Source: a virus. From it: a DNA stretch of 64,000 nt. The notes beneath the pieces were generated by a model. That model had not been told where the DNA came from. It saw nothing but the letters and a program-made list of their open reading frames with translations, and made no database searches. Numbering within the stretch: position 1 is the stretch's first letter; every line of letters starts with the position of its first letter. Position numbers and translations under genes: made by a program. The stretch lies in the UHGV virus genome UHGV-1366123, one strand, 5' to 3'. Of this stretch, positions 5,015 to 60,152 are shown piece by piece.

Positions 5015-5230
5015 TAAAAAGAAGAATGCTAACACTGTTAAGGTTTATTATTCTCGTGTTTATTGTTTTACCGATAGTTCTTATGAGAAAGTTATCTCCA
5101 AAACTAAAACGCAAGAGAAGGTACTTTCCTTGCGCTCTGAGAAGTTCTTTGGTATAAACAACCGCAGAAAAGCGAAGAAGACCAAGGAAAGTACCTTCCT
5201 TGAGTTCGGAAAGCATAGGAGAAATAAGAG

Positions 5231-5267
5231 AAAGCCCCGATCATCCATAAACAGATGATCGGGGCTT
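5231..5267. terminator. Bidirectional terminator hairpin aaagccccgatcatc...gatgatcggggcttt between convergent genes
   Basis: 15-bp perfect stem flanked by an A-run and a T-run; lies between + gene ending 5014 and - gene ending 5298. Confidence 0.65.
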
Positions 5268-16393: not shown

Positions 16394-17176
16394 ATGGACA
16401 GTTTCAAGAAACTAAGTAAAAGCGAATTCGTATCAGAACTTCCACAGTTCATAAACAACTTCCTGTCGATTATAGAATCAAAGTTTAACTCATATGACTC
16501 TATAATCGACACTGCTCGAGGTATCATAAACCTCACAGGGAATAGTACAATGTCTCTCAAGAAGGTAGTTCTCAATGCCGATATTGATGACGTACTTTCT
16601 ATTCTCGATAAGAGCAATTCACAGATCGCCAGCATTGACAACCTTGGTAATGCGAGATTTGCAAAGCTCGTTGCAGGGAAAGGAACTACAAGTGTCGCAG
16701 ATGGTGAATCTTACATTGATAGACTGTTCTGTGATTCATTCAAGACGAGATCATTCTCCTCGACATCTTTTGATATTGAACAAACACTGGTCACTCAATA
16801 CGAGGTACTGAATGTCACACAGAATAGTGGTACTGACATTCACAATAAAAAGTCTGTACTTCTGCTGAACTACAATTCGATGATATCTTCGGGGGAAAAG
16901 AAACTACTGATCAACCCAGCAACTCTGAAAAAGGGGATGCATTTCACGATGCACCTTTTCCAATGTGGTGAATCCGACATCTGTCAGATAGCTTCTTCCG
17001 ATCCCTTGAGACCAATACGACTTATGAATGGGAAATCCACTGATGTGTCGATTGTGTTCAAAGGACAAAGATCTGATGAACCACAATTTGTCGAACTGGT
17101 CTATGTTGATGAGAAGAACTATCAAGGTCTTGTGGTTTATAGACACAGTGGTGTAACGTTCAGAAACAACGCATAA
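16394..17176 (+). CDS. hypothetical protein (260 aa)
   Basis: ORF. Confidence 0.55.
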   Translation: MDSFKKLSKSEFVSELPQFINNFLSIIESKFNSYDSIIDTARGIINLTGNSTMSLKKVVLNADIDDVLSILDKSNSQIASIDNLGNARFAKLVAGKGTTSVADGESYIDRLFCDSFKTRSFSSTSFDIEQTLVTQYEVLNVTQNSGTDIHNKKSVLLLNYNSMISSGEKKLLINPATLKKGMHFTMHLFQCGESDICQIASSDPLRPIRLMNGKSTDVSIVFKGQRSDEPQFVELVYVDEKNYQGLVVYRHSGVTFRNNA

Positions 17177-17287
17177 GGCATAAGGCACATACTCAAACAC
17201 AAAAATATCTTCGAAAGCACAGAGAGGTATCTTCGTTGAACTCGGAGATACCTCTCGCTGTTTTCATATTAGAAGAAAAAGATAGGA

Positions 17288-17307
17288 CAAGGAAAGTACC
17301 TTCCTTG
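17288..17307. repeat. GTAC-centred palindrome caaggaaagtaccttccttg (dispersed family)
   Basis: 20-bp near-perfect palindrome; family member. Confidence 0.7.
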
Positions 17308-17319
17308 AATTCATGCGAC

Positions 17320-17400
17320 ACTGACAAAGGTGTCAGCATGTATGACAAATCTGTCATGACAGACACATGACAAGGATGACTTGGTACGATCTTTGTTATA
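17320..17400 (+). promoter_or_regulatory. TGACA/TGTCA half-site cluster (tgacaaaggtgtca, atgacaaatctgtcat) followed by box TGGTACGATCTTTGTTATAAT
   Basis: Palindromic operator-like sites next to an extended -10 (TGnTATAAT) / sigma54-like (TGGCAC-N5-TTGT) box about 100 nt upstream of ORF 17496. Confidence 0.45.
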
Positions 17401-17495
17401 ATTATCGTGAAAGATCCTCACGGATCAATCAGACAAGAATCGTCATTATCCATCATCAATAACCACCGAAAGGTAAAAACAAAAGAACAGAACTT

Positions 17496-17987
17496 ATGAA
17501 AATGGTAGGCAACAACACGTACTACTTCAATTCCAAAGAAGGTGTTACACCAGCAGATCATGCTGTTAAGTACGACTACGGCAAGGCAGTATCAGATACC
17601 TTCTACGGTGATTACGACATGGCTGAAGCTCGCCTTGAAATCGAGAATCCCAAATCTCTTGGTGAATACCTCGAGAATATCGAAGGTCACTATGTTGAAG
17701 GTGTAAGCAACTGGCAGGAAGCGCACAAGTACCTCATCGATCTTGTGCAAGCAATGCTCGTGGAACTGGTGAAAACAACACCATCCTTCAACAACGTCAG
17801 AGAATACTCTGCTGTCATCAACGAGAGCTATGCTGACGGCTCTTTTGTTGACTATTCAGTGTCATATTGGCCAGAAAATGAAGAGGTCAACATCTACCTT
17901 GAAGCAAGTAACAACCTCAAGGGAATAGCTTTGAGTAGAAGCGAACTCGAAAAAATGCTAATCATCGAAGCCGTTGATCTTGAATAA
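17496..17987 (+). CDS. hypothetical protein (163 aa) flanked by TGACA repeat arrays
   Basis: ORF between two operator/iteron-like arrays. Confidence 0.5.
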   Translation: MKMVGNNTYYFNSKEGVTPADHAVKYDYGKAVSDTFYGDYDMAEARLEIENPKSLGEYLENIEGHYVEGVSNWQEAHKYLIDLVQAMLVELVKTTPSFNNVREYSAVINESYADGSFVDYSVSYWPENEEVNIYLEASNNLKGIALSRSELEKMLIIEAVDLE

Positions 17988-18016
17988 TGATCAATAACTA
18001 AAAAAGATAAAGATGA

Positions 18017-18055
18017 AAGCCCACCTCGACGCTCATATGCCGAGGTGGGCTTTTT
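18017..18055 (+). terminator. Terminator aaagcccacctcg...cgaggtgggcttttt
   Basis: 13-bp stem plus T5. Confidence 0.65.
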
Positions 18056-18061
18056 GCTTTT

Positions 18062-18240
18062 CAATATAACGACAGACATGACAGACATGACAGACATGAC
18101 AGACATGACAGACATGACACGGAATATGACAGACATGACAGACATGACACGGAATATGACAACTGACATCTTTGTCATGTCAGAATATGACACGTGGCAT
18201 CTTTGTCATGTCAGAATATGACACGTGGCATGACAAAGAT
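18062..18240. repeat. Tandem array: (gacagacat)x5, gacacggaatat, (gacagacat)x2, gacacggaatat, then a 36-bp direct repeat x2 (catctttgtcatgtcagaatatgacacgtggcat)
   Basis: Counted directly from the sequence; non-coding. Confidence 0.8.
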
Positions 18241-18333
18241 GTTAAAGGATGTTATGGCATATGACACTTTGTAATACAAGATGTTACAAAGTGTTAAAGA
18301 ATATATGACAAGACATATGACAACTGACAAATC

Positions 18334-18375
18334 TGTCATGTCTTTGAAACTCTGGCACGATTTTTGTTATAATTT
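18334..18375 (+). promoter_or_regulatory. ATGACAAATCTGTCAT palindrome (second copy) plus box TGGCACGATTTTTGTTATAAT
   Basis: Near-identical duplicate of the 17354/17376 elements, upstream of ORFs 18442 and 18807. Confidence 0.45.
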
Positions 18376-18441
18376 CTATGTGAAGATTTTCACACAAGCT
18401 AATCAAATCAGTTCAACAAATCAAATCACAAATCAGTCATC

Positions 18442-18759
18442 ATGGCTAATCGCAAGTCCAATGGTTTCTTCAACAACGCAATGGAAACCATCATCAGCAC
18501 GATCAAGAAGGTAGCTTCCACGACGAACCAGTTCTTCAAGACAAAGAAGACCCTTAGAAAGTGGATGTCGATCACGTTCATCCTCCTGCTCATCCTTGAA
18601 ACGTTCTTCCCACTCGGCAAAATCGTGAAGGGTCTCGTAGGTAACTTCATAGGTGGAGCATCTGGCGTAGTGATCTTCATCCTCGGCTTCCTCGCCACGT
18701 GCTACATCGTAGTGGAAGCAACAGATCCTGCAAACGGCAAGAACAACAAGAACAAGTAA
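18442..18759 (+). CDS. small membrane protein (105 aa; two predicted TM helices)
   Basis: Hydrophobic stretches ITFILLLILETFF and GASGVVIFILGFLATCYIVV. Confidence 0.45.
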   Translation: MANRKSNGFFNNAMETIISTIKKVASTTNQFFKTKKTLRKWMSITFILLLILETFFPLGKIVKGLVGNFIGGASGVVIFILGFLATCYIVVEATDPANGKNNKNK

Positions 18760-18806: not shown

Positions 18807-20588
18807 ATGGCAACTTACATCACCCCCGAAGGCGCACGCAAGGAAATCAACAGAGCTTTCATCATCAAAGTTCGTCGTCACATCGTAGAGGACATGGAAC
18901 GCAAGCTCTATTATTCACTTTCTCCTGCATACCGCAAGAAGTTCACTATGGAAAAGTGGGTACGTGAACAGTCCGTCGGTAGACTTTTCATGACTGGGGA
19001 CAAGGACAACTCGATCTTCTCCGAATTCTTCTCAATCTTCTACCCACAGGCAATGGAGCAATCCTTGCTTATCCTCCACGACGAGGATGAATCTCATAAC
19101 GTCGTCATTGACATGTTCGACATGTTCAGAACTCGACGAAAGTACGTCAGAAACAAGGAAGTCGCAGACATCCAAAAGAAGATCCGTGAGATCGAAAGAC
19201 TGATCGAAAACCGTGAACAGAAGGTGACAATGTCAGACTTCAAAGCGACGAAGTCATTCTCGAAGGAACTCTCCGAAATCGAGGAATTCAAGGCAGAGAT
19301 CCAGACGCTCCAAGCAAGGATCAAGGAACTCGAAACGAAGGATGATGAAGCATATGCTCGTCGTCTCGAATCATACGACGGTCTGACCTATCAAGAGATC
19401 TATGAACTCGAAAGCCGTGACTTTTCGAAGTCAGAAGACAATGAATGGTTCTCTGATGACAAGCCCATCAGCGGTTATATTGCAGTCTCCGCCAAGAATC
19501 TCTCTCTGATGAGATTCAACAGAATGCAGACCAACATCGTTATTCCTATGTCAAAGCTCACGTCAAACAGTGATGCCGACGACGAGGAAATGATCGACAT
19601 CGCTCACAAGCGCAACACCGTCAAGGAAGATGACGAGGAAATTGAAATCGTCCGATCAGAAGACATTTTCAACCCCGACGAAGATCCAGAGGATGCAAAG
19701 AACAAGAGAATGATCAAGCGTTGCCGTGAACTCTTCGAAAAGTGTCCCAACTCTGAAGTCCTTATCGACTTCATCTTCCACGATCTTACCCACGAACAGA
19801 TCCGTGATAAGTATGGATTCGAAACAAGCGGTGCAGTAAAGTCTCGTGTCTTCAGAATGCGAAACAGAGTAAAGGAAATCATCAAGCGTGAACTTGAATC
19901 AGAAGCGATCCTTGAACGTCAAATTCCAACTGGTGTCGTCACGAGATACTATGAAAATGGTGAACTCGACACGATCAAGTCGGAATCATTCTTCGAAAAC
20001 TTCCAAATGGTCAAGCGAATCGAATACTTCGAAAATGGCAAGGTAAAGCGCACTTCGAACTATGTCGACGGCTCTCTCTGTGGTGAGTATACCGAATACT
20101 ACGAAAACGGAAAGGTCTATAAGAGCGGATTCTACACGAATGGTAAGAAGTCTGGGGAATGGACTACCTACTTCGAAAATGGGAAGAAGGACGAATGGGT
20201 GAACTATCTCTCGGACACCGAGAAGATCTTCGAAGTCTATAACGAACAAGGCAAGCTCGAGCAATACGGTCATATCGTGGAAGGTGTGGCAGTAGAGTTC
20301 TTCATCGACAACGTTCACACAGAACGCTACATGAGTGGAAAGCTCAAGGTACGTGGCAACACCGACAAGAAGAACAACCCGATAGGCATCTGGGAAATGT
20401 ACGACGAAGAAGGTCGTGTTATCAAATCAAAGAAGCACGACAAGAATGGTAACGTCGTAGAACTCTCAGAATACGACTACGACCATGCACAAATCAAGAC
20501 TTATCGTTACGGTGAAGATGGTGTTATGAAGGAAATGGAAACGAAGCCTATCAAGTCCGAAGATAACGCCCACGAAGACCGCAACTAA
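18807..20588 (+). CDS. protein with sigma-70 region-4-like HTH and C-terminal MORN/YwqK-type repeats (about 594 aa from ATG 18807; ORF opens at 18699)
   Basis: LIDFIFHDLTHEQIRDKYGFETSGAVKSRVFRMRNRV resembles sigma70_r4; repeats YYENGELDT / YFENGKVKR / YYENGKVYK / YFENGKKDE. Confidence 0.45.
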   Translation: MATYITPEGARKEINRAFIIKVRRHIVEDMERKLYYSLSPAYRKKFTMEKWVREQSVGRLFMTGDKDNSIFSEFFSIFYPQAMEQSLLILHDEDESHNVVIDMFDMFRTRRKYVRNKEVADIQKKIREIERLIENREQKVTMSDFKATKSFSKELSEIEEFKAEIQTLQARIKELETKDDEAYARRLESYDGLTYQEIYELESRDFSKSEDNEWFSDDKPISGYIAVSAKNLSLMRFNRMQTNIVIPMSKLTSNSDADDEEMIDIAHKRNTVKEDDEEIEIVRSEDIFNPDEDPEDAKNKRMIKRCRELFEKCPNSEVLIDFIFHDLTHEQIRDKYGFETSGAVKSRVFRMRNRVKEIIKRELESEAILERQIPTGVVTRYYENGELDTIKSESFFENFQMVKRIEYFENGKVKRTSNYVDGSLCGEYTEYYENGKVYKSGFYTNGKKSGEWTTYFENGKKDEWVNYLSDTEKIFEVYNEQGKLEQYGHIVEGVAVEFFIDNVHTERYMSGKLKVRGNTDKKNNPIGIWEMYDEEGRVIKSKKHDKNGNVVELSEYDYDHAQIKTYRYGEDGVMKEMETKPIKSEDNAHEDRN

Positions 20589-27238: not shown

Positions 27239-27254
27239 AGTGCCCTCTTGATAC

Positions 27255-27336
27255 AAGAAGGGTACTTTCCTTGCAGTCGAAGATGCTCAAAGGTATGAAA
27301 ACAACAGAAGATGTCTTCGAGTGCAAGGAAAGTACC
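27255..27336. repeat. Palindrome-pair module (caagaagggtactttccttg ... gcaaggaaagtacc)
   Basis: Two GTAC palindromes about 50 bp apart just after the TMP stop. Confidence 0.65.
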
Positions 27337-27665
27337 ACGGAAAAACTCGAAAAGTACATAAATCAAAAATCCAAAAGAATAATGGTGGGAAATCGTTGGT
27401 TTAGACAGGTGGTTATCAATGCAACAATGTTCGTCATGTGCAGTTGCTTTATAACGTTTATGATAGTTTCAGTGATGTCATTCTTATCTTCCAAATCCAT
27501 AACTTTTTACGATAGTAGAAGCGGACAAGACACGATAACTCTGGTTGATACGATATACGTTCAAAGCCCAGACACAACAGTGGCGATGGACACTGTTGTG
27601 AGGAACATGGAAATAAACAATGACAATGTTGTAAACGATTGAAAAATTGGAAACACAAAGCAGGT

Positions 27666-27771: not shown

Positions 27772-30700
27772 ATGGCAAGAGCAACTGTTAGTCTTTCTGA
27801 TTTAAAGACAAAGTTCAAAGGTGCTGGTGTCTTTACCATGATTTCTGATGAATCGGTAACGTCATATAACGCACCTGGTAGAATCTCTGTCCTTGTACCA
27901 GGTTTTTCAAAAGTTGGATGGTTCAACAGACCATTCCTCATCGAAGCAGGTGATGTTGAGACTTTGAGAAATCTGTATGGCGCACGTGATAAGTCGCTTG
28001 AAAGGAAAGGATCATTCTTCCACAAATCAATAGAAGTACTTCTCAAGAATACACCAGTCATTGCGCTTAATCTCGTGAAGTTCAATGATACGCTAAAGGA
28101 AGATGGTACTCCTGCAGAAGATGCAGACAAGGTCGATTTCCTCTCGCTATCCACTGAACCACAGATCAAGAACATCGGCAAGACGACGAAGTTGTATTCT
28201 TCATTCTTCAAGAAGGATGACTGGTTTATTCCTTCTGCAGAGAATGTTCTCGCAAATAGACGTGATAAGTCAATTTTTAATCTTGTAAACCTTTCACAGC
28301 AAAAACTCTCATTCATCATCAAGAAGGCAGAACTTCGAGGTTATGACATGAAGCTCAAGGAATGGTATGATGGCAATGTTCCAGCGTACCTTGATCCAGA
28401 GACATCAGTCAACGACTACATCATCGAAGTTATCGCTATTGTTGGTGATTATTCTCAGATTTCTGATTTTGATGTTAGATTCAAGGGACTGTTTGAAGGA
28501 GGTCTTCTGCAGGCAGACAAGCTTGAAGATTTCCTGCGTCGTCAAGATATCGCCATCAAGTTCAGAACTGTAGGATCACTTATCCCAGACTTCCGCACGA
28601 AGAATGGTGAAAATCTCTACATTGAACAGATGATCAACTCGTCGACGATTTCTCACGGTGTCGTTTGTGCAATTGATAGAGAGCAGATCGAAGACAAGCA
28701 GTACAACATGCACGAACGACAGATTGATGTTGTTTGCTCTTCAATCATCCAGAATCCTGCCGATTCTCTGGAGATGCTTTCTCACGTGTCGAAGTCGTTT
28801 GGTCAGAGAACAGTAATCGAGCCACGTGTGTTCTCGGAAGAGATGGTCATCGACGAGATCTCACTGTCCAAGTTTGAAAAGGTAGATGATAAGACTTTCC
28901 TCTTCACCGACAAGTCAGACGATATGTACACGAAGCTTCTCCGTATTGTGAAGACTGGTACTCACCCACACGTGAAGGTAAAGCGGAAGTACACTGTACC
29001 AGAACATGACACATCGCACTCTGAAGATCGTAAGCGTGTTGATGGCATTCTCCACAAGTACACTAACGACACCGCAGTTGGATCAAAGCTGGAAATCACT
29101 GAAATGGGTGATATTCGTCTTGTGTTCGATGAAATCGTATCATTCCCTCTCGGTAAGGCAACTTTCAAGGTTGTGGAAAATGAGAACGCAGTGTTCATCG
29201 ACGGATCTCCTGCAAAGAACGCAGATGATGTCGTGGCATATGCCAAGAAGATCGGTTTCAATGCAGTGAAGACGGATGGTGGTAAGGTCGATATCATCCC
29301 CACTACCAAGAATCTCGCAGAAATAAACACCGAAGTTCTGACGACGGCACGCCACGACGTATTCGACACCTATGATAAGACCACTGGTGATATCATCAAG
29401 AATGTTGCAGGTAACACGAACGTTGCCACTCTCACGAGAGAACAGTCTGATATCAAGGACACTGACCTCAAGGCAACGATTTCGGTCTATGGTGATGGTA
29501 ACATTTACGTTGAAGATGACACCGATAAGAACAAGTGGCTGTTCCTTGAAGACATTCACATCGGTTCTATCGAAAACGGTACTGCTCGTGTATGGGCAGA
29601 AGGCTCAAGCATAAACGGTGATGTTGTCGCTGTTCAGTATGATCAGAAGTCACGTGAAATTTCTGACAGCGTTAGTGTCAACTGCTATGAGTTCTATGTC
29701 TCATCTGTAGGAAATGAAGAAGCACTCTTCCTCAATTCTGCACCGAAGGTAACGATTGGTGAACTCGACTATGGTAACAAGATCGAAAACGTTCTTGATG
29801 TTGTTGCAGATAAGTCCAACAAGCTCTCCTATCAAGATGTTGAACTTATCAAGACCTTCTACAAGACTGCTACGTTCAACATGGAGAACATTCAGAAGAT
29901 ATCGCTTGATCTCTCTTCTATTCGCACTCAGAAAACGTTCGTTGTAGAGCAGAAGGTGTTCGAAAAGAACCCTATCGAAGTCGGGGATAAGATCAAGACT
30001 ACGATGGATGTGCACAATGTGATATCGATCAAGCAGGAACTGGTTGGTGGCAAGAAGTTCTTCATCGTCGAACTCGATGGTTCGATTGGTGATGGTCGTT
30101 TCTACAGAGAGGTTTCTGTTCACGAGCTTACGAAGTTCTACAAGGTGTTCTCTCTTGATGGATTCCAGATTAATCCGAAGTCTATCCCAGATGGATCAAA
30201 CAAGTCCATTCGTGAGATTTACTCAGTGATTTCTGAAACCAACATCGGCAAGGCACTTTCTGATCCCGAAGCGATCTCGTTCCGATATATCGTTGACACT
30301 TTCAATGGTGGTATCGAACCAAAGTGCAAGAGCTACATTTCAGAAATTGCCAAGAAGCGTGATATCTGCATGGCGATCATCAACATTCCTCGTGTCGATG
30401 AGTTCAAGAAGCACAAGAATCCAAGATTCACGGCATCACCCACTTCGACCAATCCTTCTCCTTCGGTAGAAGTCAGATACATCGTTGAAGGTGGGAACAA
30501 GGCAGAATCTCCCGAATGGTTGTTCTCTCTCCCCGAAGAGGAGCAGGGTGCATCACATTCAGCATTCTTCTTCCCAAATGTTTCAGTTACGGAGACTGAC
30601 GGCTCTACGTCATCTATCCCACCTGCCAGCTATGTTGCATCTTGCTTCATGCGCAAGTTTGGGACAACGGACGAATACAAGCCTTCTGCAGGTATCATCC

Positions 30701-31197
30701 GTGGTGCAATAACTGGTGAAGGTGTTACTGGTGTTGACTTCCGTCTTGGATCTGATGATTACCGCTCTCTCATCGAGTTTGGTATCAACCCAATCATCAT
30801 CAAGAACGGCTCTCCGATAATCTACGGTAACGAAACTGGTTATCAGAGATTTACGTCTGCACTCAACAACATTCACGCTCGTGACCTTCTTATAACCATA
30901 ACTGAGGAAACGAAACGACTCATCGATCCTTACGTTTATGATTATAACGATGATACGATGAGAGCAACGATCAGAACTATTCTCAACGGTTATTATGGTT
31001 CTCTCCGTGATGCTTATCGTGCAATCGAAAGCTTTAAGATAACCATTGATAGAACCAACAACCCTGGGTGGCTGGTCGACAACGATGGTGTTCTTATTGA
31101 CGTTGAAGTCACGATTACTGGTGTTGCCAAGAAGTTCATCAACAGAATCACCCTTAAGGGAAGATCGGTGAATCAGACAGGCTTTACCATAATATAA
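27772..31197 (+). CDS. large virion/tail protein (1141 aa)
   Basis: Long ORF immediately downstream of TMP-like gene; beta-rich. Confidence 0.6.
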   Translation: MARATVSLSDLKTKFKGAGVFTMISDESVTSYNAPGRISVLVPGFSKVGWFNRPFLIEAGDVETLRNLYGARDKSLERKGSFFHKSIEVLLKNTPVIALNLVKFNDTLKEDGTPAEDADKVDFLSLSTEPQIKNIGKTTKLYSSFFKKDDWFIPSAENVLANRRDKSIFNLVNLSQQKLSFIIKKAELRGYDMKLKEWYDGNVPAYLDPETSVNDYIIEVIAIVGDYSQISDFDVRFKGLFEGGLLQADKLEDFLRRQDIAIKFRTVGSLIPDFRTKNGENLYIEQMINSSTISHGVVCAIDREQIEDKQYNMHERQIDVVCSSIIQNPADSLEMLSHVSKSFGQRTVIEPRVFSEEMVIDEISLSKFEKVDDKTFLFTDKSDDMYTKLLRIVKTGTHPHVKVKRKYTVPEHDTSHSEDRKRVDGILHKYTNDTAVGSKLEITEMGDIRLVFDEIVSFPLGKATFKVVENENAVFIDGSPAKNADDVVAYAKKIGFNAVKTDGGKVDIIPTTKNLAEINTEVLTTARHDVFDTYDKTTGDIIKNVAGNTNVATLTREQSDIKDTDLKATISVYGDGNIYVEDDTDKNKWLFLEDIHIGSIENGTARVWAEGSSINGDVVAVQYDQKSREISDSVSVNCYEFYVSSVGNEEALFLNSAPKVTIGELDYGNKIENVLDVVADKSNKLSYQDVELIKTFYKTATFNMENIQKISLDLSSIRTQKTFVVEQKVFEKNPIEVGDKIKTTMDVHNVISIKQELVGGKKFFIVELDGSIGDGRFYREVSVHELTKFYKVFSLDGFQINPKSIPDGSNKSIREIYSVISETNIGKALSDPEAISFRYIVDTFNGGIEPKCKSYISEIAKKRDICMAIINIPRVDEFKKHKNPRFTASPTSTNPSPSVEVRYIVEGGNKAESPEWLFSLPEEEQGASHSAFFFPNVSVTETDGSTSSIPPASYVASCFMRKFGTTDEYKPSAGIIRGAITGEGVTGVDFRLGSDDYRSLIEFGINPIIIKNGSPIIYGNETGYQRFTSALNNIHARDLLITITEETKRLIDPYVYDYNDDTMRATIRTILNGYYGSLRDAYRAIESFKITIDRTNNPGWLVDNDGVLIDVEVTITGVAKKFINRITLKGRSVNQTGFTII

Positions 31198-31573: not shown

Positions 31574-33244
31574 ATGCAAAGAAGAAAAAGCAATGGATTC
31601 GTTGCTGGTCTCATTTCAAAGTATGCGAAATCGATATCAGATATCGGAATTGATTATTCTATAATAGCGAGAACGAAGTCAATCACAAAAGATGGTGATG
31701 ACGATGACATCTATGACGACAAACAAAGAGAAGTCCGTGATCCTTATGAAGACATGTCCTACGAAAGTAAGAGAGATGTTTATCGTAAGTTCGCATCATA
31801 TAACGAAATAGAGTACATTCTCGATAGCGTATGTGACGATTCAATAATCCCCGATGAGTTCGGGATGGCGTGTTCGATAAACATAAGAGAAGAAAAGCTA
31901 CTCGCCTATCACGTTTCTGTTATCAAGAAGAACTTCGAGCAGGTTTACAGCATGCTCAAGTTCGATCAATCTAACAACCTTTGGAAAAAGTTCAGATCTT
32001 ATCTCGTTGATGGTGCTATTGCTTATGAGATCGTGTATGAATATGAGAAGAAATCAGAGATCATATCAAAGATCGAATCCATAAAGGGGAAAATTCGATC
32101 AGTGAATGAATCGATATCTCATATGAAGAACGATGTAAAAAGATCAACACTCATAGCAGAGAGAAAGAGAGAGGAAAGAGCTTTAAGAAAGTACGAAGAA
32201 ATCTACAATCTTTCATCTTCAATGTCTATGCAGAACGGAGAAGATGGTGAAGATGTTGTACCAGTGAAAATCATCGGTTTTGTTGAATTAGACCCTGCAA
32301 AACTGGAGAAAATAGTAGATGGTGAATCTGGGAAGGTTTATTGGTTCTATGCAGAAAACGGCAGTTATCTGTCTGACAATCAAGTCATTAGAATCTCTTA
32401 TTATGATGAATCAACATCGGGAAACGTTTCCTATGTTGAAAGACTTATAAGAAACTTCAACTTGAAGAGAAAACTTGAAGATTCTACTGTTGGATGGTTT
32501 ATCATGAACTCGCAATACAAGCTCAAGATGGTAGTACCGATCGCCAACAAGACGAGAGATAAAGCAAAGGAAGCACTTCGAAAGGTAACAAACAACTACC
32601 AAGAAGATCTGTTTGTCAATGCGATGACTGGGGAAGTTACTATTAACGGAGAACCAAGAATTAACTATTCACGTAACATAGTCTTCCCAAATCGAAACGG
32701 TCAGTCTCCTCAAGTTGACGTTCTACAGAGCAGTGGGCCAGATCTTTCATCGATGAAGGTCGTGGACTATTTCAACCGAGCACTTCGAAAAGACTCTCGT
32801 ATTCCACTGAACAGATATGATAGAGACCAATCGAACTCGAGAGCGATAATCTTCAAGGCAGATAGTGTCACTTATGAGGACATGTCCTATGCAAACTTCA
32901 TAAACAGAATAAGAGCATCATTCTCCGAAGTCCTCAAGAAGCCGATTTACATCCAGTCTCTTCTTGATTGTAAAGACCTCGTGGCATTCCAATCATTGAA
33001 GTCGAGTATCGGTTTTACTTTCAACACGAACTTCCTCTTTGAAGAATCTCGACAGGCAGAGATCATGCGTGCAAGATATGAACTCGTCAAGAACTATGAA
33101 AACATAAAGGGAGAAGATGGAGGAATGCTGTTCTCACAGAAGTTCCTTTACGTGACGAAGTTCAAGGTCTTCACCGAGGAAGAATGGGAAGAGAATGAAA
33201 GAATCAAGGAAGCAGAGAAAAACAAAGAAAAACAAGAAGGTTAA
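31574..33244 (+). CDS. hypothetical virion-module protein (556 aa)
   Basis: Long ORF with conserved upstream motif. Confidence 0.6.
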   Translation: MQRRKSNGFVAGLISKYAKSISDIGIDYSIIARTKSITKDGDDDDIYDDKQREVRDPYEDMSYESKRDVYRKFASYNEIEYILDSVCDDSIIPDEFGMACSINIREEKLLAYHVSVIKKNFEQVYSMLKFDQSNNLWKKFRSYLVDGAIAYEIVYEYEKKSEIISKIESIKGKIRSVNESISHMKNDVKRSTLIAERKREERALRKYEEIYNLSSSMSMQNGEDGEDVVPVKIIGFVELDPAKLEKIVDGESGKVYWFYAENGSYLSDNQVIRISYYDESTSGNVSYVERLIRNFNLKRKLEDSTVGWFIMNSQYKLKMVVPIANKTRDKAKEALRKVTNNYQEDLFVNAMTGEVTINGEPRINYSRNIVFPNRNGQSPQVDVLQSSGPDLSSMKVVDYFNRALRKDSRIPLNRYDRDQSNSRAIIFKADSVTYEDMSYANFINRIRASFSEVLKKPIYIQSLLDCKDLVAFQSLKSSIGFTFNTNFLFEESRQAEIMRARYELVKNYENIKGEDGGMLFSQKFLYVTKFKVFTEEEWEENERIKEAEKNKEKQEG

Positions 33245-35830: not shown

Positions 35831-35965
35831 TTCGAGCGCAAGGAAAGTACCTCTCTTTGATTTAAGCTTTCGAACACACTTCCCTTGCATTCGAAACTAT
35901 TCAAGAATATGAAAATAGCGGAAAATGGGTCAGAGTTCAAGGAAAGTACCTCTCTCGAATTAGAA
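35831..35965. repeat. Composite ~110-bp module: GTAC palindrome, TTCAAGAATATGAAAATAGCGGAAA, GTAC palindrome (copy A)
   Basis: Near-identical modules at 41722-41825 and 42163-42270. Confidence 0.7.
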
Positions 35966-36051
35966 GGCGTATGTTTATAAACGGAAAGGTGGCTACCAGA
36001 GAGATCATCTCCGATAGCCACCACCTTCTCTTCTTTTTACGATTTTCTTTT

Positions 36052-41661: not shown

Positions 41662-42956
41662 TGACTAACAGTGAAGACAATCGACCATAATGAAAAACAA
41701 TGACTAAAAATGGTCGAATTAAAGGAAGGTACTTTCCTTGTCCTCGAAGTGACTCAAGAATATGAAAATAGCGGAAACTATACTCAAGCTCAAGGAAAGT
41801 ACCTTCCTGTAATCAGAAGAGGTATTCTGTAAGACTATGGGCTATCGTCGGGAGACAATGGACTATTTCGAAGGATTATGAGAGGATAATCAAAGACTAT
41901 GGAAAGACAATGGCTGATTATTGAAAGACAATGGCTGATTATTGAAAGACTATCGATCATAATCAAAGACAATGAAGGATTGTCGTCTTTGTGTCTTCCT
42001 TGTCTTCAAACTTATCAAATGGGGTGAAAGTAGCTCCAAGTATCTTCAAGTTCAAGGAAAGTACCTTCTTGTAATCAGAAGAGTACTTTTGTCCAATGAT
42101 GGGTTGATAATGAAAGACAATGATGATTATCAAAGGACTATTGAAAGACTATCGACTGTTTTCTTGGTACTTTCCTTGTCCTCGAAGCTATTCAAGAATA
42201 TGAAAATAGCGGAAAGTGTATCAGAATGCAAGGAAAGTACCTTCCTGTAATCAGAAGAGTATTTTTGAACAATTATGGGTTATTGTCGGAAGACAGTAGA
42301 TTATTTCGAATGATTATCAAAGACTATGAAAAGACGATGACTATGAAAAGACAGTCAATCATAATCGAAAGACAATGGACGATTATTGATTAATCATTGA
42401 AGACTTTGAAGGATTGTGGAATGACTATGAAGACAATGGACGATTGTTGAAAAATTCTCAAAAGACTATGAAGGATCATTGAAAGACTATGACGATTGTT
42501 GAAAATTCTCAAAGACTATGAAAAATTCTCAAAGACTTGGATTCTTGGACTAATAGTCAGACTAATTCTTGGAGATTATTCGGCTCAGTTGTCGACAAAC
42601 TGCGTGCTTATTCGTGTGTATTCCCGTGTGTATTCCCGAGTGTATACTCGTATACGCATGCGGTATTTCAAATTATCTGGAAAAGTAAATGCGAAGCATT
42701 TACAACTGGTTTGGAGAACAAACTATGCACGCTAGTGCATAGGTTTCTTCCAAACCATACATTGAGCGCAGAAATATCTTTATTTCTCAGATTAAAAATC
42801 TCCAGTTTAAACGATTGGTACCGCCAGCGTGTTAGGTGACACGCACGTAAAACTGTAGGAATTCCTGCGCTCACGTATGAAACTTTAAAAAACGTACACG
42901 TAAAACTTTAAAAAGATCCAACAATTAACATTCTTTAACATAACCTATCACCTCTC
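41662..42956. repeat. 1.3-kb non-coding repeat region: two ~450-bp tandem units, each a palindrome-pair module followed by an AAGAC(T/A)ATG(G/A) iteron array, then CGTGTGTATTCC direct repeats and palindromes ctatgcacgctagtgcatag, ggtttggagaa/ttcttccaaacc
   Basis: Iteron spacings 11, 21, 21, 20 bp counted directly; no credible ORF. Confidence 0.75.
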
Positions 42957-48339: not shown

Positions 48340-49125
48340 ATGCAAACTTATCTCGATTTGCTCAAGTACGTTCTTGAAAATGGAACAGAAAGAACTGACA
48401 GAACTGGAACTGGAACAATCTCCGTGTTTGGTCATCAAGTGGAATATGACGTAAGTGAAAAGTTCCCAATACTCACCACGAAGAGAATCCACATGAGAAG
48501 TGTCATTATGGAACTTGCTTGGATGCTCAAAGGTGATACCAACGTGAAGTTCTTAAGAGACAATGGTGTGACGATCTGGGATGAATGGGCAGATGAAAAC
48601 GGAGATCTCGGAAAGATCTACGGAAAGCAATGGAGAGATTTCGGAGGGATTGATCAAATCAAGGATATCATCGACCAAATCAAGAACAACCCAGATTCAC
48701 GAAGAATAATCGTCTCGGCTTGGAATCCTGCAGAACTCTCGGAAATGGCACTTCCTCCTTGTCATTGCTTCTTCCAGTTCTACGTCGAAGGTGACCGACT
48801 ATCCTTGAAGCTTTATCAAAGATCTGCTGATCTCTTCTTGGGTGTTCCATTTAACCTTGCACAATACTCACTCTTGCTTTACATTGTTGCAAAGATCTGT
48901 GGAAAGAAACCTCATCGTTTTATCCACTCGTTTGGAGATCTTCATATCTACAAGAATCACTTGGATCAAGTAAAGCTCCAACTATCGAGAAAACCATACG
49001 AACTCGCAGAGGTAAAAATCGTGGGAGATATCGACATTGATAATATCTCCGCAAATCTCATCGATCAAATCGAAATCAAGAACTACGTTCATCATCCCAC
49101 AATCAAGGCGGATGTGAGTGTTTAA
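48340..49125 (+). CDS. thyA: thymidylate synthase
   Basis: Near full-length identity pattern to ThyA: DRTGTGT, catalytic [22 protein letters not shown]. Confidence 0.95.
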
Positions 49126-49140
49126 AAACTCAAGCAAGCT

Positions 49141-50136
49141 ATGCAGAAAAACTCGGAACAATGCAGAACAATGCAGAAAAAATTCGGAGCAATGTGGAAA
49201 AAACTGAAGGTGGAATTCGTCGCATATGTCGGCAAGTCCTTGTGTGTCAACGATTATACGAATCCGTTCACAGATGAGAAGTACAGAGAATCACTGAGAA
49301 AGTTGATAAATGACACTCGTGAAGGTGCGATTATTCTTATGGACGGAGAGTACTTCGAAATGATGGAAAGATCAAACTTTAGAGTTCCGTCGATTGTTCT
49401 CTTTGATTTTCAACACAAAGACACCAAAGATACGAAGTTCATCTGTTCATACAGTCAACTTTGTGATTTCCTTCGTGGGAGAAACGAGAAGGTCTTCGTT
49501 ATAGGTGGATACGACACATGGGCATCGCTTGTTCAGTACGTCTCCAAAATCCACTTCCTCGTCACTGATGAGAAATGGAACGAGGAAATGACAAGACCAT
49601 TCTTGGATGATGTTCATAAAGTGTGTAAGATAACAAACTACTCAGAATTCCCTAACGGAATAATCCACCAAGAACGTGAATTTGCAGACAATGTTGTGAT
49701 TTGCAACAGTTATGTTTCTAAAGACAAAGGATGTGAACTTTACTGTTGGGATGTTCTTTCACATGTGAATTCTGAAGGTGAACCTGTAAACAGAATACTT
49801 TCGAATGGTGTATCGACAATCGTCGGAGGAGGTGATACGATTTCGATCGTTACAGATTTCAAGATGTACAGAATACCGCCCACAACTGATATCCGTGTTG
49901 TGGAAAATCCTCGTTTCCGTTCGCTTGGTGTTGTTATGCAGTCGTGTAAAATCTCTGGTGGCGACATTATCATTTCTTTTACCAACAACTCACCACACCG
50001 TGTTATGTTGGACTATAAGAAAGTGGTTGCTAATATTCACATAATCGGAGACTACAAACTCATAGGTTGTAATAACGATTTCTCAGAGAATATGGAAACC
50101 AGCAAATGGGGAACTAAACTGATCAAACACTCATAA
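49141..50136 (+). CDS. degenerate DHFR-like domain fused to dUTPase-like beta-barrel domain (paralog 1, 331 aa)
   Basis: GAIILMDGEYFE...VPSIVLF and KVFVIGGYDTWASL resemble DHFR; C-terminal VTDFKMYRIPPTT...SGGDIIISF..VMLDYKKVVANIHII aligns with paralogs. Confidence 0.55.
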   Translation: MQKNSEQCRTMQKKFGAMWKKLKVEFVAYVGKSLCVNDYTNPFTDEKYRESLRKLINDTREGAIILMDGEYFEMMERSNFRVPSIVLFDFQHKDTKDTKFICSYSQLCDFLRGRNEKVFVIGGYDTWASLVQYVSKIHFLVTDEKWNEEMTRPFLDDVHKVCKITNYSEFPNGIIHQEREFADNVVICNSYVSKDKGCELYCWDVLSHVNSEGEPVNRILSNGVSTIVGGGDTISIVTDFKMYRIPPTTDIRVVENPRFRSLGVVMQSCKISGGDIIISFTNNSPHRVMLDYKKVVANIHIIGDYKLIGCNNDFSENMETSKWGTKLIKHS

Positions 50137-50155
50137 GAACAATCACAAACAAAAG

Positions 50156-51214
50156 ATGAAGAAGAACAAGACCGAAATCGAAATGATCCTATTTGTCAAT
50201 GACAAAGGCAAGACAGTCAACGCCCAGAAGTTGTTATCTTCACCCTCCGAAAGTGATCTTCGAGACTATATCGGAAAGATTACAACTGGGAACATCATCG
50301 TCTTTGATGAGGACACGTGTTCTACACTTATCGCTCCATTACCAAACAGAATCTGTGTTGTAATTACCCAGAACAAGGACTTCAATCGTGAAGGGTTTGT
50401 TCGTGTAGAATCTATCCGAGATTTCATCGACATGCTCGGTACGAAGTTCGACAGATATCGTGATGTTTACGTAATGGTCGACAACATTCACATCGCAAGA
50501 AGCTTCATGGGTCATGTCGATAGAGTGAAGATGGTGGAAGTCAAAGGATCAAAGAACCACGACAGATACGAACTCTCTGATGTTCCTTACAAGACAATCA
50601 CTGATATTCGTCGATCTTCGAACGTTGTCGGTGAATACTCTCTCAATGATCTCGTAAAAATCATTGATTATGAGTTTAAAGACAACGTCTTCATGTGCAC
50701 AGCAAGTGTTGATGGCTTTGGATGTTGTGGTGTCTGTGCACGAGAACCAAGAATCCATGTCGACAGCTTTGGTGAAACTGTGAGAAGAAAGTCGGACTGT
50801 CGTGAATCCATAGTCCTTCACAAAGGTGATAGAGTTTTCATGAAGACTGATATCGAGATTTACAGAATTCCCAAGAACGTTTATGTCGATATCAAGACAA
50901 TCTTACATGGCTTTATCTGTAACGGAATCTCTGTGGAATCGTCGAGTATCGCTGACGGTGTCGTCTGTGTTGGACTGATAAACATGGGATCGAAGCCTGT
51001 CACCATTCACAAGGATCAAACAATTGCCATAATGGCGGTCAGAGGTGATCATGAGTTCTTGAAAGTAGAGCATAAAGACTTCCCACGTGAAAAAGTCGAT
51101 GGGTGGAATAACTTCGAACGTGAAGACGAAGATGAAAATCGTCGACCACTAAAGGATGAGTGTTGTGTGGGTAGTATAATGGAACGTTGTGAAGACAGCG
51201 ATTATGACTTTTAA
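50156..51214 (+). CDS. degenerate DHFR-like domain fused to dUTPase-like domain (paralog 2, 352 aa)
   Basis: GNIIVFDEDTCSTLIAPLPNRICVVITQN resembles DHFR; C-terminal KTDIEIYRIPKN...IADGVVCVGLINMGSKPVTIHKDQTIAIMAV resembles dUTPase motifs III-IV. Confidence 0.55.
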   Translation: MKKNKTEIEMILFVNDKGKTVNAQKLLSSPSESDLRDYIGKITTGNIIVFDEDTCSTLIAPLPNRICVVITQNKDFNREGFVRVESIRDFIDMLGTKFDRYRDVYVMVDNIHIARSFMGHVDRVKMVEVKGSKNHDRYELSDVPYKTITDIRRSSNVVGEYSLNDLVKIIDYEFKDNVFMCTASVDGFGCCGVCAREPRIHVDSFGETVRRKSDCRESIVLHKGDRVFMKTDIEIYRIPKNVYVDIKTILHGFICNGISVESSSIADGVVCVGLINMGSKPVTIHKDQTIAIMAVRGDHEFLKVEHKDFPREKVDGWNNFEREDEDENRRPLKDECCVGSIMERCEDSDYDF

Positions 51215-51227
51215 AGAATAATCGATT

Positions 51228-52097
51228 ATGCCAGTAAAGTTTATAGCTTGTACAGATAAGAACTTCGCTGTTGGAAACGATAGCAAACTTCTGTTCAGAA
51301 TTCGAGAAGATATGAAGCTGTTCCGTGAGCTGACGATGGGAAGCATTGTCGTCATGGGCAGGAAGACCTTCGAAGAGATCGGAAAGCCACTTGAAGGTAG
51401 AATAAACATTGTTCTATCAAGATCGGACATTTCTATTGGAGGTGTTCACGTTTTCCGATCGATGGAAGAATTGAAAGCTTTCTGCATGACATCTGAAAAT
51501 CGACAGAAAGATGTCTTTGTGATTGGTGGTGCAGAAATGTGGGAACTCTTTAGAAGATATGTTTCACAGATCCACCTCACGAAAGTCCCAGATGACTGTC
51601 CCGAATACGACACCGTCTTCCCTCATGATCTCTTGACGGCTTTCACACTCGTTCATAAGAATCAGATCGGCATCTATGAAAAGAACTATCAACCGATTGT
51701 CCATGAAGTCTATGACAGACAGAAGGATGTGACGGTTATGAACCGCAAGAATGATAAGCTCGTACCTTTGAGATTTGTCGATGTTCTTGAATATGTCGGT
51801 GATAAACCATCAACGATTCTTAAAGACGATTCAGTGAAGATACTTGCAAATGACAGAATCGCTGTAAAAACTGATCTTCGTGTTTATGAACTTCCTTTAG
51901 ACACGCTTGTCAGTGTGGATGTCGTTCCATCAGTTTTTATGGACAACGGACTGATGATTGCAGGTTGGGATATCTTTGATGATGACTTTATCGTTTACAT
52001 GACACTGATTGGAAAGAAGTCGATTTCACTGAAACGTGGTGATATCATAGCAGACGTTAATTTCTATTCTCGTCATCCTCTGATTTACGCCCCATAA
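51228..52097 (+). CDS. folA: dihydrofolate reductase fused to C-terminal dUTPase-like domain (paralog 3, 289 aa)
   Basis: IVVMGRKTFEEIGKPLEGRINIVLSR and DVFVIGGAEMWELF...IHLTKVPDDCPEYDTVFP are canonical DHFR; C-terminal KTDLRVYELPLDT...GWDIFDDDFIVYMTLIGKKSISLKRGDIIADV. Confidence 0.85.
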   Translation: MPVKFIACTDKNFAVGNDSKLLFRIREDMKLFRELTMGSIVVMGRKTFEEIGKPLEGRINIVLSRSDISIGGVHVFRSMEELKAFCMTSENRQKDVFVIGGAEMWELFRRYVSQIHLTKVPDDCPEYDTVFPHDLLTAFTLVHKNQIGIYEKNYQPIVHEVYDRQKDVTVMNRKNDKLVPLRFVDVLEYVGDKPSTILKDDSVKILANDRIAVKTDLRVYELPLDTLVSVDVVPSVFMDNGLMIAGWDIFDDDFIVYMTLIGKKSISLKRGDIIADVNFYSRHPLIYAP

Positions 52098-57774: not shown

Positions 57775-59205
57775 ATGAAAGCCAAGAAGCATCACGTGGG
57801 CATGTTTGACCACATGTTCCAAAAGGGAAAGATCACATTCTTGCTGGATGGTTACTCCGCAGGTTCATCTGGGAAGGGCAAATGTGAATCTCTGATCGTA
57901 AAGAACACGTCGTTTGGATCTAAAGACAGTGATAAGCGTCTTGCAGTCTGTACCACAAACTCTGCAAATGCGTCACATTGGGTTTATGATGACGGCAAGA
58001 AGATGATGTTCGAAGTCCTCCCTTCATCGGCTTACCTGTACGAAAAGCTCGAGTTCGTGGCTATCGGTCACGGTGCGTCGTTCTCCGTTGAACGTCTCTT
58101 CGAAGAAATCAAGATGAGCGGTCTTCCCCTCGATAAGCTCTTCATCCACCCCAAGGCAGGGATCATCACCAAGATCGACGAAGACTACGAAAAGGGTCTT
58201 TGTGATATCGACGGCAACTATTCGTCACAAGACCACGACGGCACAATTGCAGGTGGTTCAACTTGCTCTGGATCTGGTGCAGTTCGTGCAAAGAAGGTCG
58301 TTCGAAACAAGACGGTGACTTATGCTTACCAAGTCCCAGAACTCAAGCAGTTCATCTGTGATGTCGAAAAGCGTCTTATGACGTTTATGATCAATGGAGG
58401 ATCAGTCCTTCTGCAGATTGGTCAAGGTTTCCCACTTTCGTATGGTCTCGGCTATAACAAGCAGAACTCAACAAGTCGAAATGTGACAATCAGTGCAGCT
58501 TTGGATGATATGAATCTTCCTCCATTCTTCGCAGGTGACGTTATCTTGAATGGTAGAACTTATCCGATCAAGATCAACAACAAGAAGTATCGCCTTATTG
58601 GTGGGAAGCCAGTTGTCCGACTTCACAAGAACTCGGAATCGACGCTCAAGTACTACGCTCATAAGCATCTGTTCGACTTCATCGAAGGAGATGATCACGT
58701 TTCTATCGTCACACGTAAGGAATTCATCAACTTCTACGAAATGCGTGAGTTCCCCTACCTTGAATACGAAGTCATCGAATCGTTCAGTGGTACTGGTTAT
58801 TCTCCAATCTGGAACGAAGAAAGTCACCAGCGAGAAATCACGTGGGAAGATGTCGAAAAGAACTATGGGAAGACAATCCCAGATGATGTAAAATGCACGT
58901 CACTTACCAAGCTCCCCCGAAGAGTCTTTGAGTTCGATAAGAGCCTTCTGCACGACGGTATTCTCTACAATCTCTCTCCAAATGGCAAAACTCATATTGT
59001 CATCAACTTCGTCAACTGGGTAGATGGTGAAATGGACGGAGAACGTGAGAAGATCACCGAAAAGGTCGAAGATTGGCTCTCCAAGAACATGTTCGGCGAA
59101 ATCGACACTATCAACAAGCTCGTAGGTGGTAATGATGAAAAGGTCGTGCTTTCTGTACTCGGGACTGGTCGTGAATCCGACGACTTTGTCGCTGTAGAAC
59201 AGTAA
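57775..59205 (+). CDS. adenylosuccinate synthetase-family enzyme, divergent (PurA/PurZ-like, 476 aa)
   Basis: P-loop GSSGKGK aligns with [30 protein letters not shown] aligns with [32 protein letters not shown] with [18 protein letters not shown] with GAQGTLLDIDHG. Confidence 0.55.
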   Translation: [476 protein letters not shown]

Positions 59206-59738: not shown

Positions 59739-60120
59739 TCTCTCGCTCTTGATGCTCATCTATGGTGTAACAGTGTCACATGCGCAGAACATAGAAATCT
59801 CGAAGAAAGATGCTGTCATAATCAACCACATGTTTGATCAACACAAGCAACTTCTTGAAATCTCCACAATGAAGGATTCGATCATGCAGTCGTTGAGGGA
59901 AGTCGTGGACAACAAGACACTTATCATTGAAAACCAACTTGAACAGCTTCGCAAGTATGACGAAATGATGATGAAGAATGACACGATCATTAATAACCAT
60001 AAGAAGATGGCGGAGATCTATGAGAAATCTCTGAAAAAGGAAAGACAAAAGTCAGTATTTTGGAAATATGTTGGACTTCTTTCCTCTGCAGTGGCTATCA
60101 CCGCATTCATCATAAAATAG
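59722..60120 (+). CDS. small secreted/coiled-coil protein with C-terminal TM (132 aa)
   Basis: Signal-like N-terminus, C-terminal hydrophobic helix. Confidence 0.45.
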   Translation: MKRIISLSLLMLIYGVTVSHAQNIEISKKDAVIINHMFDQHKQLLEISTMKDSIMQSLREVVDNKTLIIENQLEQLRKYDEMMMKNDTIINNHKKMAEIYEKSLKKERQKSVFWKYVGLLSSAVAITAFIIK

Positions 60121-60130
60121 GCTCTCCGAG

Positions 60131-60152
60131 CTTAAGGAAGGTATTTTCCTTG
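60131..60152. repeat. GTAC palindrome cttaaggaaggtattttccttg
   Basis: Family member directly upstream of purB. Confidence 0.6.

Follow-up and report, generated by a model that had tools for sequence, protein, structure and literature searches.

Within the virus genome UHGV-1366123, of which a stretch of 64,000 nucleotides (hereafter the window) was analysed, positions 17,320 to 18,375 harbour two near-identical 21-bp boxes, P1 and P2, that appear to behave as promoters of a regulated control region and that are each preceded by an array of TGACA pentamers. The window is part of a T4-like myovirus of ~150 kb from the human gut, and about ten related phages carry the combination of array, box and 5' hairpin, each of them three or four times per genome. 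It is a conserved multi-copy regulatory module and not a set of chance repeats. Judging from the sequence, each copy very probably consists of a promoter together with an array of regulator sites. The more specific model, namely that these are co-regulated, regulator-dependent phage promoters of an activator type, is from our point of view about evenly poised between being right and being wrong, with positive control being more likely than repression.

Two promoter-like boxes behind intrinsic terminators

The box TGGYACGATYTTTGTTATAAT occurs at only two sites of the 64-kb window (17382-17402 and 18353-18373; 0 expected), and these two copies are identical at 19 of 21 positions. If up to three mismatches are allowed, they are still the only matches in the 64 kb, and 100 shuffled sequences gave none at all. 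A first-pass annotation made from the letters alone had noticed such a pair at 17379 and 18355; the boxes are indeed present, but start at 17382 and 18353. The 163-aa open reading frame (ORF) that it had placed between them is found at 17496-17987 with two strong intrinsic terminators around it, and ORF163 would therefore be monocistronic, with the second box opening a new transcription unit. Each box lies just after a terminator and 70-95 nt in front of the first gene of a plus-strand unit. The features of the region are the following, with > and < giving the orientation of the pentamers:

17222-17265, plus strand: intrinsic terminator closing the upstream structural-gene unit, with a 14-bp stem followed by GCTGTTTTC (stem-loop 17222-17256)
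17322-17372: P1 site cluster with pentamers at 17322>, 17331<, 17343>, 17352<, 17357> and 17368>
17382-17402, plus strand: P1 box TGGTACGATCTTTGTTATAAT, putative core promoter of ORF163
17408-17431, plus strand: P1 leader hairpin TGA-AA-GATCC-tcac-GGATC-AA-TCA, 6 nt past the box and approximately at the predicted 5' end of the message
17496-17987, plus strand: ORF163, an acidic protein (isoelectric point, pI, of 4.4) and the cargo of P1
18016-18060, plus strand: intrinsic terminator after ORF163, with a 15-bp stem and a T-run (stem-loop 18016-18053)
18070-18235, plus strand: distal P2 array, in which most ATGACA units are direct repeats spaced by 9 and 12 bp
18236-18352, plus strand: proximal P2 regulatory region, conserved as coding DNA
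18353-18373, plus strand: P2 box TGGCACGATTTTTGTTATAAT, putative core promoter of the ORF105/ORF593/RtcB/5'-3' exonuclease unit
18379-18394, plus strand: P2 leader hairpin TGTGAA-gatt-TTCACA, in the same place relative to the box
18442-18759, plus strand: ORF105, a small basic membrane protein and first gene of the P2 unit
18807-20588, plus strand: ORF593, with a coiled coil, a segment resembling regions 3/4 of extracytoplasmic function (ECF) sigma factors (residues 282-360) and MORN repeats
P2 unit cargo: ORF105, ORF593, RtcB and the 5'-3' exonuclease

The module in related phages

Module loci were collected from IMG/VR and human-gut metagenomes, either by searching for the pattern or by retrieval anchored on proteins, and carry L-numbers where they have to be told apart (L071, for instance, is Logan SRR32496752). 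The relatives are IMG/VR and human-gut assembly contigs of about 145-150 kb with 86-93% identity; among GenBank phages, near and distant searches found no nucleotide relative, and tblastn with ORF163 and ORF593 gave no match. In total, more than 25 distinct cassette alleles were tabulated, with P1, P2 and a third cassette, P3, being recurrent and a fourth locus, P4, being present in one genome:

about 13 kb beyond the window start: P3 cassette, with a 258-aa clade-specific protein followed by DNA ligase and others

Four parts make up the module, namely a TGACA array in which a triple site is fixed, then the box, the 5' hairpin and a non-structural operon. Every cassette precedes a plus-strand non-structural gene, and P1 and P2 of the window follow intrinsic terminators, of which the upstream one (17222-17265) is invariant in five relatives. 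When the T of TGG is counted as -27, TGACA sites stand at -53>, -44< and -39> in P1, P3, P4 and one cassette of L071 (L071b), the relative with the latter layout having an ORF593 homologue of only 61% identity, and P2 keeps sites at -72>, -60>, -53>, -44< and -116>. Inside the box, no indel is found and the spacing GG-N10-G(T/C) is identical in all alleles. What is kept of it in distant relatives is TGGCAY-N4-TTTG(T/C), with TATAAT being lost there; in L071 and L072, TGTCA/TGACA arrays, TGGCAY-N4-TTTGT and a 5' hairpin are still present.

As a separate observation, the ORF105/ORF593 pair of L071 (7940-9100) points the other way from the ORF163-like, RtcB and exonuclease genes, which creates a divergent intergenic region with two cassettes and TGTCA arrays mostly in the opposite orientation.

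The TGACA arrays

The unit common to the arrays is the pentamer TGACA, usually as (A/T)ATGACA. The stretch 17320-17381 contains six TGACA/TGTCA sites where 0.17 would be expected (p=3e-8), and 18070-18340 contains 22 against an expectation of 0.76 (p=1e-24); elsewhere in the window, the density is 2.8 per kb. These pentamers are enriched about 25-fold in front of the two boxes, and TGACA is 24-fold enriched in the arrays whereas TGGCA is enriched only 3-fold. Across the whole window, ATGACA shows no enrichment (83 found compared to 75 expected); the signal of the arrays is one of clustering. In the P2 array, 17 of the 22 pentamers are oriented towards the promoter. The P1 cluster contains the dyads TGACAAAGGTGTCA, ATGACAAATCTGTCAT and TGTCATGACA and is longer than that of most relatives by exactly one 11-bp unit. 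The palindrome that had been described in front of each box is exact only at P1 (ATGACAAATCTGTCAT, 17342-17357), as the second copy at 18324-18339 reads CTGACAAATCTGTCAT, begins with C and agrees at 15 of 16 positions.

The distal P2 array is composed of five GACAGACAT units, a 30-bp block in two copies and a 31-bp block in 2.6 copies. The 9-bp repeats of the first-pass annotation are hence real, but they form five contiguous GACAGACAT units (18071-18115) and not seven clean copies; Tandem Repeats Finder counts 8.4 copies between 18071 and 18149 at 89% match, and the 30-bp block ATGACAGACATGACAGACATGACACGGAAT is doubled at 18096-18125 and 18126-18155. Similarly, what had been taken as a 36-bp direct repeat in two copies is present as a 31-bp unit repeated 2.6 times (18152-18231, 93% match). 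The proximal region carries TGACA at 18262, 18306, 18318 and 18325, TGTCA at 18334 and the dyad CTGACAAATCTGTCAT.

The two parts of the P2 upstream region differ in their variation. The copy number of the distal array is different in every relative, with 72-86% identity and unit-sized indels, whereas the 206 bp before the P2 gene start show 89-98% identity among close relatives, the same as the flanking genes, and because of this difference the distal array is best regarded as plastic and the proximal sites as constrained. Free variation of the repeats among isolates, which had been named as an observation that would speak against a regulatory role, is thus found for the distal P2 array but not for the proximal sites. 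Taken together, the motifs are clustered, conserved in position, located beside promoters and common to several promoters, which are the properties that sites of a sequence-specific regulator would have.

Two TGTTA-N5-TGTTA pairs, 42 bp apart at 18240-18254 and 18282-18296, are invariant among the relatives, and TGTTA is 6-fold enriched in the arrays; the pairs suggest a second DNA-binding factor that would act at P2 only. A coding potential of the arrays (ORFs of the MTDMTD... and MSVMSV... type) was considered and rejected, as these ORFs reach into the terminator and are not maintained in frame or length in the relatives.

The probable host and the proposed descent of the core promoter

The host is almost certainly a member of the Bacteroidales, because a Shine-Dalgarno sequence is absent before all 40 gene starts checked (the leaders being A/C-rich), because the CotH tail domain is 34-41% identical to Bacteroides phage proteins, and because distant ORF163 homologues adjoin SusC-like receptors, hybrid two-component regulators and AhpCF. 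This identity matters since Bacteroidetes do not have sigma70-type -10/-35 recognition and use boxes of their own, namely a -33 TTTG and a -7 TAnnTTTG (PMC7366714).

Distant ORF163 homologues are preceded by canonical TTTG-N19-21-TAnnTTTG promoters. In a MAFFT alignment, their TAtcTTTG falls on the GATCTTTG within the P1 box and both have CACC(G)CCGAAAGGYAAAA as a common 3' leader, and the GATYTTTG of the close clade has 7 of the 8 positions of TAnnTTTG. A -33 TTTG at 19-21 nt upstream of the -7 box is not found in any allele; P3 and P4 have a TTTG at 23 nt inside the dyad, and P1 and P2 have none. The box hence resembles the canonical Bacteroidetes sigma-A promoter in its GATYTTTG, which aligns with the true -7 box of the ORF163 homologues, but differs from it in that the first T is never present, in that the -33 TTTG is missing and in that an extra conserved TGGCAC lies immediately upstream. 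None of the sigma70, sigma54 and sigma-A readings passes all tests.

A model of positive control

We propose that the box would have descended from a canonical Bacteroidetes -7 element by a change of TAnnTTTG to GAnnTTTG, the loss of the -33 TTTG and the gain of TGGCAC. Such a box alone would be a poor sigma-A promoter. A protein binding (A/T)ATGACA could then occupy the triple site TGACA-N4-TGTCA-TGACA, which ends 9 nt upstream of TGGCAC at the place of a -33/-35 element, and load cooperatively over the sites further upstream, upon which host RNA polymerase would initiate a few nucleotides downstream of the box. With cooperative binding at shared sites, all cassettes would fire or shut off together. 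Activation is favoured by two observations, namely that the full TGACA sites all lie upstream of the core promoter, with none over -10 to +20, and that no allele has a T at position 1 of the -7 box or a -33 TTTG at 19-21 nt.

Parallels can be seen in class II activators and in the T4 middle promoters, and in the latter a MotA box at -30 is combined with a sigma70 -10 element and sigma is appropriated by AsiA and MotA. The T4 promoters and the present ones both concern T4-like myoviruses and non-structural genes, and in both the downstream core is kept while the -35/-33 element is replaced by a phage motif at fixed distance. The present module differs in having a TGACA dyad and a long array and not a single 9-bp box, and in that the host sigma factor is the Bacteroidetes sigma-A; no MotA or AsiA homologue was detected.

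Several points weigh against positive control or against descent from a sigma-A promoter. The missing T at position 1 of the -7 box concerns every allele, the match fails in L071a and L072, and the distant P2 cassettes read AGCTTTTG and GTAGTTTG, in which the 'A' of the -7 box and with it the -7 homology are lost and TGGCAY is kept. Arrays reaching up to 300 bp upstream would be unusual for class II or MotA-type activation. The P1 cassette is absent in L089, and that of L093 lacks TGACA sites and has only a degenerate box, so that at least P1 is dispensable. The sign of the regulation rests on inference and all positions relative to +1 are assumed. Finally, the binder candidates that can be named, i.e. 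the first gene of P3 and residues 282-360 of ORF593, are weak, as the former has a TrmB-type match of only E=0.038 and a model with a predicted local distance difference test score (pLDDT) of 37, and the latter reaches 21.7 bits.

The original proposal of a regulated early control region stands as far as the promoter-like boxes, the flanking terminators, the recurrence of the module and the fixed positions of the proximal sites are concerned, but the repressor operators that were part of it are not favoured over activation.

Repression as an alternative

A serious though rather improbable alternative is that the boxes are strong early promoters and that a phage protein made from one of them binds at TGACA, spreads over the array and silences the early units in a negative feedback. 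The same evidence on the architecture of the module is compatible with this explanation, and the proximal site abuts or overlaps the place of a -33/-35 contact. Short repeats in both direct and inverted orientation by promoters are, moreover, characteristic of repressors of the ribbon-helix-helix type, for example omega of pSM19035 and ParR. Arrays of this type (the omega heptads of pSM19035, ParR/parC of R1 and the ParG boxes) are similar to those described here in having many 5-7 bp cores in both orientations at 7-12 bp spacing next to regulated promoters, and in that one protein controls several promoters. They belong, however, to plasmid repressor/centromere systems, while in the phage the spacing is irregular and no protein of this kind was found.

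It also fits repression that the TGGCA within the box is one base away from TGACA and an occasional variant of the array unit, and that P1 of L010 reads TGACAC, so that a weak operator could lie inside the core promoter; TGGCA, however, shows only the 3-fold enrichment given above against 24-fold for TGACA. The gene directly downstream of P3 may, on weak evidence, encode a DNA-binding protein, which would give autoregulation. On the other hand, the core promoter is not one that would be expected to be strong in the presumed host, as the -33 box is lacking and the first base of the -7 box deviates from the consensus in every allele, and repressor binding over -10 to +20 would have no full TGACA site at its disposal.

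A possible sigma54-type promoter

It is unlikely, from our point of view, that the box is a -24/-12 promoter (TGGCAC-N5-TTGY) of host RpoN, with the arrays serving as upstream activator sites for an AAA+ enhancer-binding protein of host or phage and with TATAAT being merely an easily melted segment. The sigma54-like TGGCAC-N5-TTG, to which the first-pass annotation had drawn attention, is nevertheless the better conserved half of the box. P2 fits TGGCACG-N4-TTGCW at all but one position, two alleles (P2 of L089 and P1 of L008) have a perfect TTGC, the GG-N10-G(T/C) spacing is invariant across alleles, and TGGCAY-N4-TTTGT survives in distant relatives without TATAAT. The arrays lie upstream, in multiple copies and in either orientation, as enhancers do. 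Bacteroidia furthermore possess sigma54 regulons (PMC12316311).

Several points speak against this explanation. The -12 dinucleotide is GT and not GC in about 90% of the alleles, P1 of L010 has GA at -24 (TGACAC), and P1 of L093 is without TTTG. The nearest conserved sites, at about -39 to -53, abut the promoter and are closer than typical activator sites. Neither GAFTGA nor an enhancer-binding protein Walker A motif nor an RpoN-box was found in six-frame translations of 363 kb of window and related loci, about a third of the phage genome and the entire host genome lying outside. In our literature searches, no virulent phage was known to depend on sigma54. When compared with the sigma54 promoters with upstream activator sequences of glnAp2/NtrC and nifH/NifA, the module shares TGGCAC-N5-TTG(C/T), the rigid GG-N10-G, multiple upstream protein sites in either orientation and a host phylum with sigma54; it departs from them in the mostly GT -12, the TATA-rich segment, the sites abutting the promoter, and in that neither an enhancer-binding protein nor a virulent-phage precedent was found.

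A second intergenic family of the phage, GGTACTTTCCTTG[CT], fits the sigma54 pattern as well: GG[CT]A[CT]-N5-TTG[CT] has 14 matches in the window compared to 3.5 +/- 1.8 in shuffles. The palindromic symmetry of this GGTAC element may, however, explain the likeness. One copy is found directly upstream of the P1 sites:

17288-17307, minus strand: copy of the palindromic element CAAGGAAAGTACCTTCCTTG, reading GGTACTTTCCTTGT on the minus strand, -24/-12-like and directed away from P1

This element sits in an inverted copy of a ~100-nt intergenic element (17170-17307), and as it faces away from P1, the TGACA sites are bracketed by two -24/-12-like motifs that point in opposite directions. The family GGTACTTTCCTTG[CT] is found phage-wide between genes, within the palindrome AAGGAAGGTACTTTCCTTG and usually followed by CTCGAAG, at 113+, 5120+, 17300-, 27261+, 27336-, 35851-, 41728+, 42166+, 42241- and 60140+.

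One could speculate further that part of the programme of this virulent, T4-like phage of Bacteroides is driven by host sigma54, through both the TGGCAC box and the GGTACTTTCCTTGC families and with an enhancer-binding ATPase on the TGACA arrays; we regard this as quite unlikely. The weakened -12 (GT) and the AT-rich downstream segment would then ease melting. If true, a transcription programme that depends on enhancers would be described for the first time in a lytic phage, and gene timing would be tied to a stress sigma factor of the host.

Sigma70-type promoters and replication origins as improbable readings

It is very improbable that the boxes are plain constitutive sigma70-type promoters with neutral, slippage-prone repeats upstream. 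The extended -10 motif TGnTATAAT of the first-pass annotation is present, with TGTTATAAT being a perfect match, P2 has a TTGAAA at 18-nt spacing, and the distal P2 array varies freely. The inferred Bacteroidales host, however, belongs to a phylum that is without sigma70-type promoter recognition (PMC7366714), and the hexamer drifts in relatives: TATAAC, without the -7 T, is present in 4 of ~13 P1/P3 alleles (P3 in 3 of 6 genomes and P1 of L008), and TATAGT, AATAGT, AATAAT and AACATT occur elsewhere, as does ACCATG in L072. Moreover, proximal sites and their positions are kept in relatives of about 60% protein identity, and no role would be left for TGGCAC, although conservation within the box is highest there. 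The sigma70-type reading was rejected on host identity and hexamer drift. No -35 element is conserved, the TTGAAA at 18 nt being confined to P2, and the use of TTGGCA as a -35 with a second -10 downstream was discarded since the downstream hexamers are not conserved.

Although tandem short repeats of variable copy number are present and T4-type phages have several promoter-associated origins, it is scarcely credible that the TGACA arrays are iterons for an initiator or a centromere-binding protein at a replication origin or partition site activated by the promoter, and the idea of a second iteron cluster was abandoned, as the cores are 5-6 bp long and irregularly spaced by 5-16 bp (regular iterons measure 17-22 bp), three or four loci per genome always carry the same box, P1 is dispensable, the neighbouring genes do not include an initiator, the cumulative GC skew climbs steadily across 17-18 kb without an inflection, and a larger repeat field beside the DNA polymerase gene (41.7-42.6 kb) is the better candidate.

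Candidates for the TGACA binder

Most likely, the protein that binds TGACA is encoded by the phage and is not ORF163, which had been put forward as a candidate. ORF163 is a poor one because it is acidic, resembles no solved fold and has homologues elsewhere without TGACA arrays. Its model is a confident alpha/beta structure (pLDDT 91.6) without a match among PDB folds, and in a viral structure library the sole clear match is an uncharacterised homologue (E=6e-22). The family has 74 members, and those in elements elsewhere have ordinary promoters. Homologues of ORF163 are also found in prophage-like regions of Bacteroidota chromosomes, beside a D12 methyltransferase and an amidase (L082, L084-L088).

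ORF593 is confined to this phage clade (seven homologues). Its residues 282-360 match TIGR02959 (SigZ) at E=1.4e-4, far under the family cutoff; a search with the single segment gave an ECF sigma factor at E=1.4 only, and a profile search against PDB sequences gave nothing. ORF593 could be a sigma-mimicking or sigma-appropriating factor. The product of the first gene of P3 is clade-restricted as well (39 homologues), its weak TrmB-type match concerns a winged helix, and its AlphaFold model is unusable. Literature searches on Bacteroides phage promoter motifs and on TGACA-binding factors found nothing relevant.

Leader hairpins

In all P1, P3 and P4 alleles, the box is followed after 6 nt by TGA-AA-GAYC-loop-GRTC-AA-TCA. 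This hairpin pairs in nine of nine alleles with a loop of 4-6 nt and one compensatory pair (GACC/GGTC), and in L093 the P2-type hairpin reads ATGAA-gatt-TTCAT, again with a compensatory change. L071 and L072 have 5' hairpins of unrelated sequence. Because loop length varies and the sequence changes, we favour an RNA 5' stem-loop over a fixed-spacing operator, and a function in message stability would be plausible; the covariation evidence is thin, consisting of one event.

The P2 hairpin TGTGAAGATTTTCACA is at the same time a perfect dyad of the CRP/FNR type (TGTGA-N6-TCACA), which would lie at about +1 to +16 and is invariant in close relatives. Resemblances of the region to PhoB, NifA, GlrR, Rex and CRP sites were rejected for misfitting spacing except for this CRP-type dyad.

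Implications

To our knowledge, almost nothing is known on transcription timing in large virulent phages of gut Bacteroidales, and the rules from E. coli are inapplicable because the primary sigma factor of the host is unusual. In this context, the module offers a compact handle, as it combines a 21-bp box with a 5-bp recognition motif whose layout is fixed, in three or four units under common regulation. Should sigma54 read the box, or should the -33 element be replaced in a MotA-like manner, this would represent a previously undescribed takeover of the RNA polymerase of Bacteroidetes by phages, and regulated promoter parts would become available for the engineering of Bacteroides and its phages. 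If the arrays are an ordinary set of repressor operators, they would still define the first regulon of this uncultured phage clade.

Other features of the window

The T4-like character of the phage is reflected in its structural genes:

27772-31197: sheath
31574-33244: T4-type portal

The window also encodes a 1278-aa tape-measure-like protein and a 2340-aa tail protein with CotH and leucine-rich repeats, and an Rfam scan of the region and the window yielded one tRNA and no other family.

Between the leftward gene block and a split family-B DNA polymerase lies a non-coding region of 1.3 kb (41662-42956) with AAAGAC[AT]ATGG repeats at periods of 11, 21, 30 and 62. It is more likely than the TGACA arrays to be a replication origin and probably represents the first iteron cluster that was implied in the first-pass annotation.

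The ~100-nt intergenic repeat consists of two inverted CAAGGAAAGTACC arms around a core AATATGAAAAYAGCG. Copies are found at 17170-17307 (inverted), 35846-36006, 41699-41859 and 42137-42297, and partial copies near 90-250, 5100-5260, 27240-27400 and 60090-60215, and the core is exact in four places (17256-, 35906+, 41759+ and 42197+). Hairpins mark the end of several copies, two copies end in TAnnTTTG (42084, 42260), and the repeats may be small-RNA or promoter cassettes.

Two additional motifs could belong to other promoter classes. GGTAAATAA[GC][CG]AAAT stands 15-30 nt before structural gene starts (~1205, 5950, 8470, 23370, 27740, 31550 and 36510) and looks like a late-promoter consensus, for which T4 TATAAATA may be compared. 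In the half of the window devoted to nucleotide metabolism, TATAAGA[AT] is found directly 3' of terminator hairpins at ~48275, 55432, 59284 and 63338 (also at 20632 and 57650) and is possibly a third promoter class; its copy at 59277 reads TTGTTATAAG and is box-like.

Lastly, this half of the window encodes a divergent adenylosuccinate-synthetase homologue, adenylosuccinate lyase, ThyA and three ORFs resembling dihydrofolate reductase (57775-59205, 60199-61470 and 48340-52097). The best PDB matches of the synthetase homologue are 6TNH, 6FM1 and 6FKO, which are deposited as 'Adenylosuccinate synthetase' and which we take to be PurZ of phage phiVC8, together with 7ODX, the sole entry named PurZ. 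The phage DNA may hence contain 2-aminoadenine or another modified base, which would affect the reading of every motif described here.

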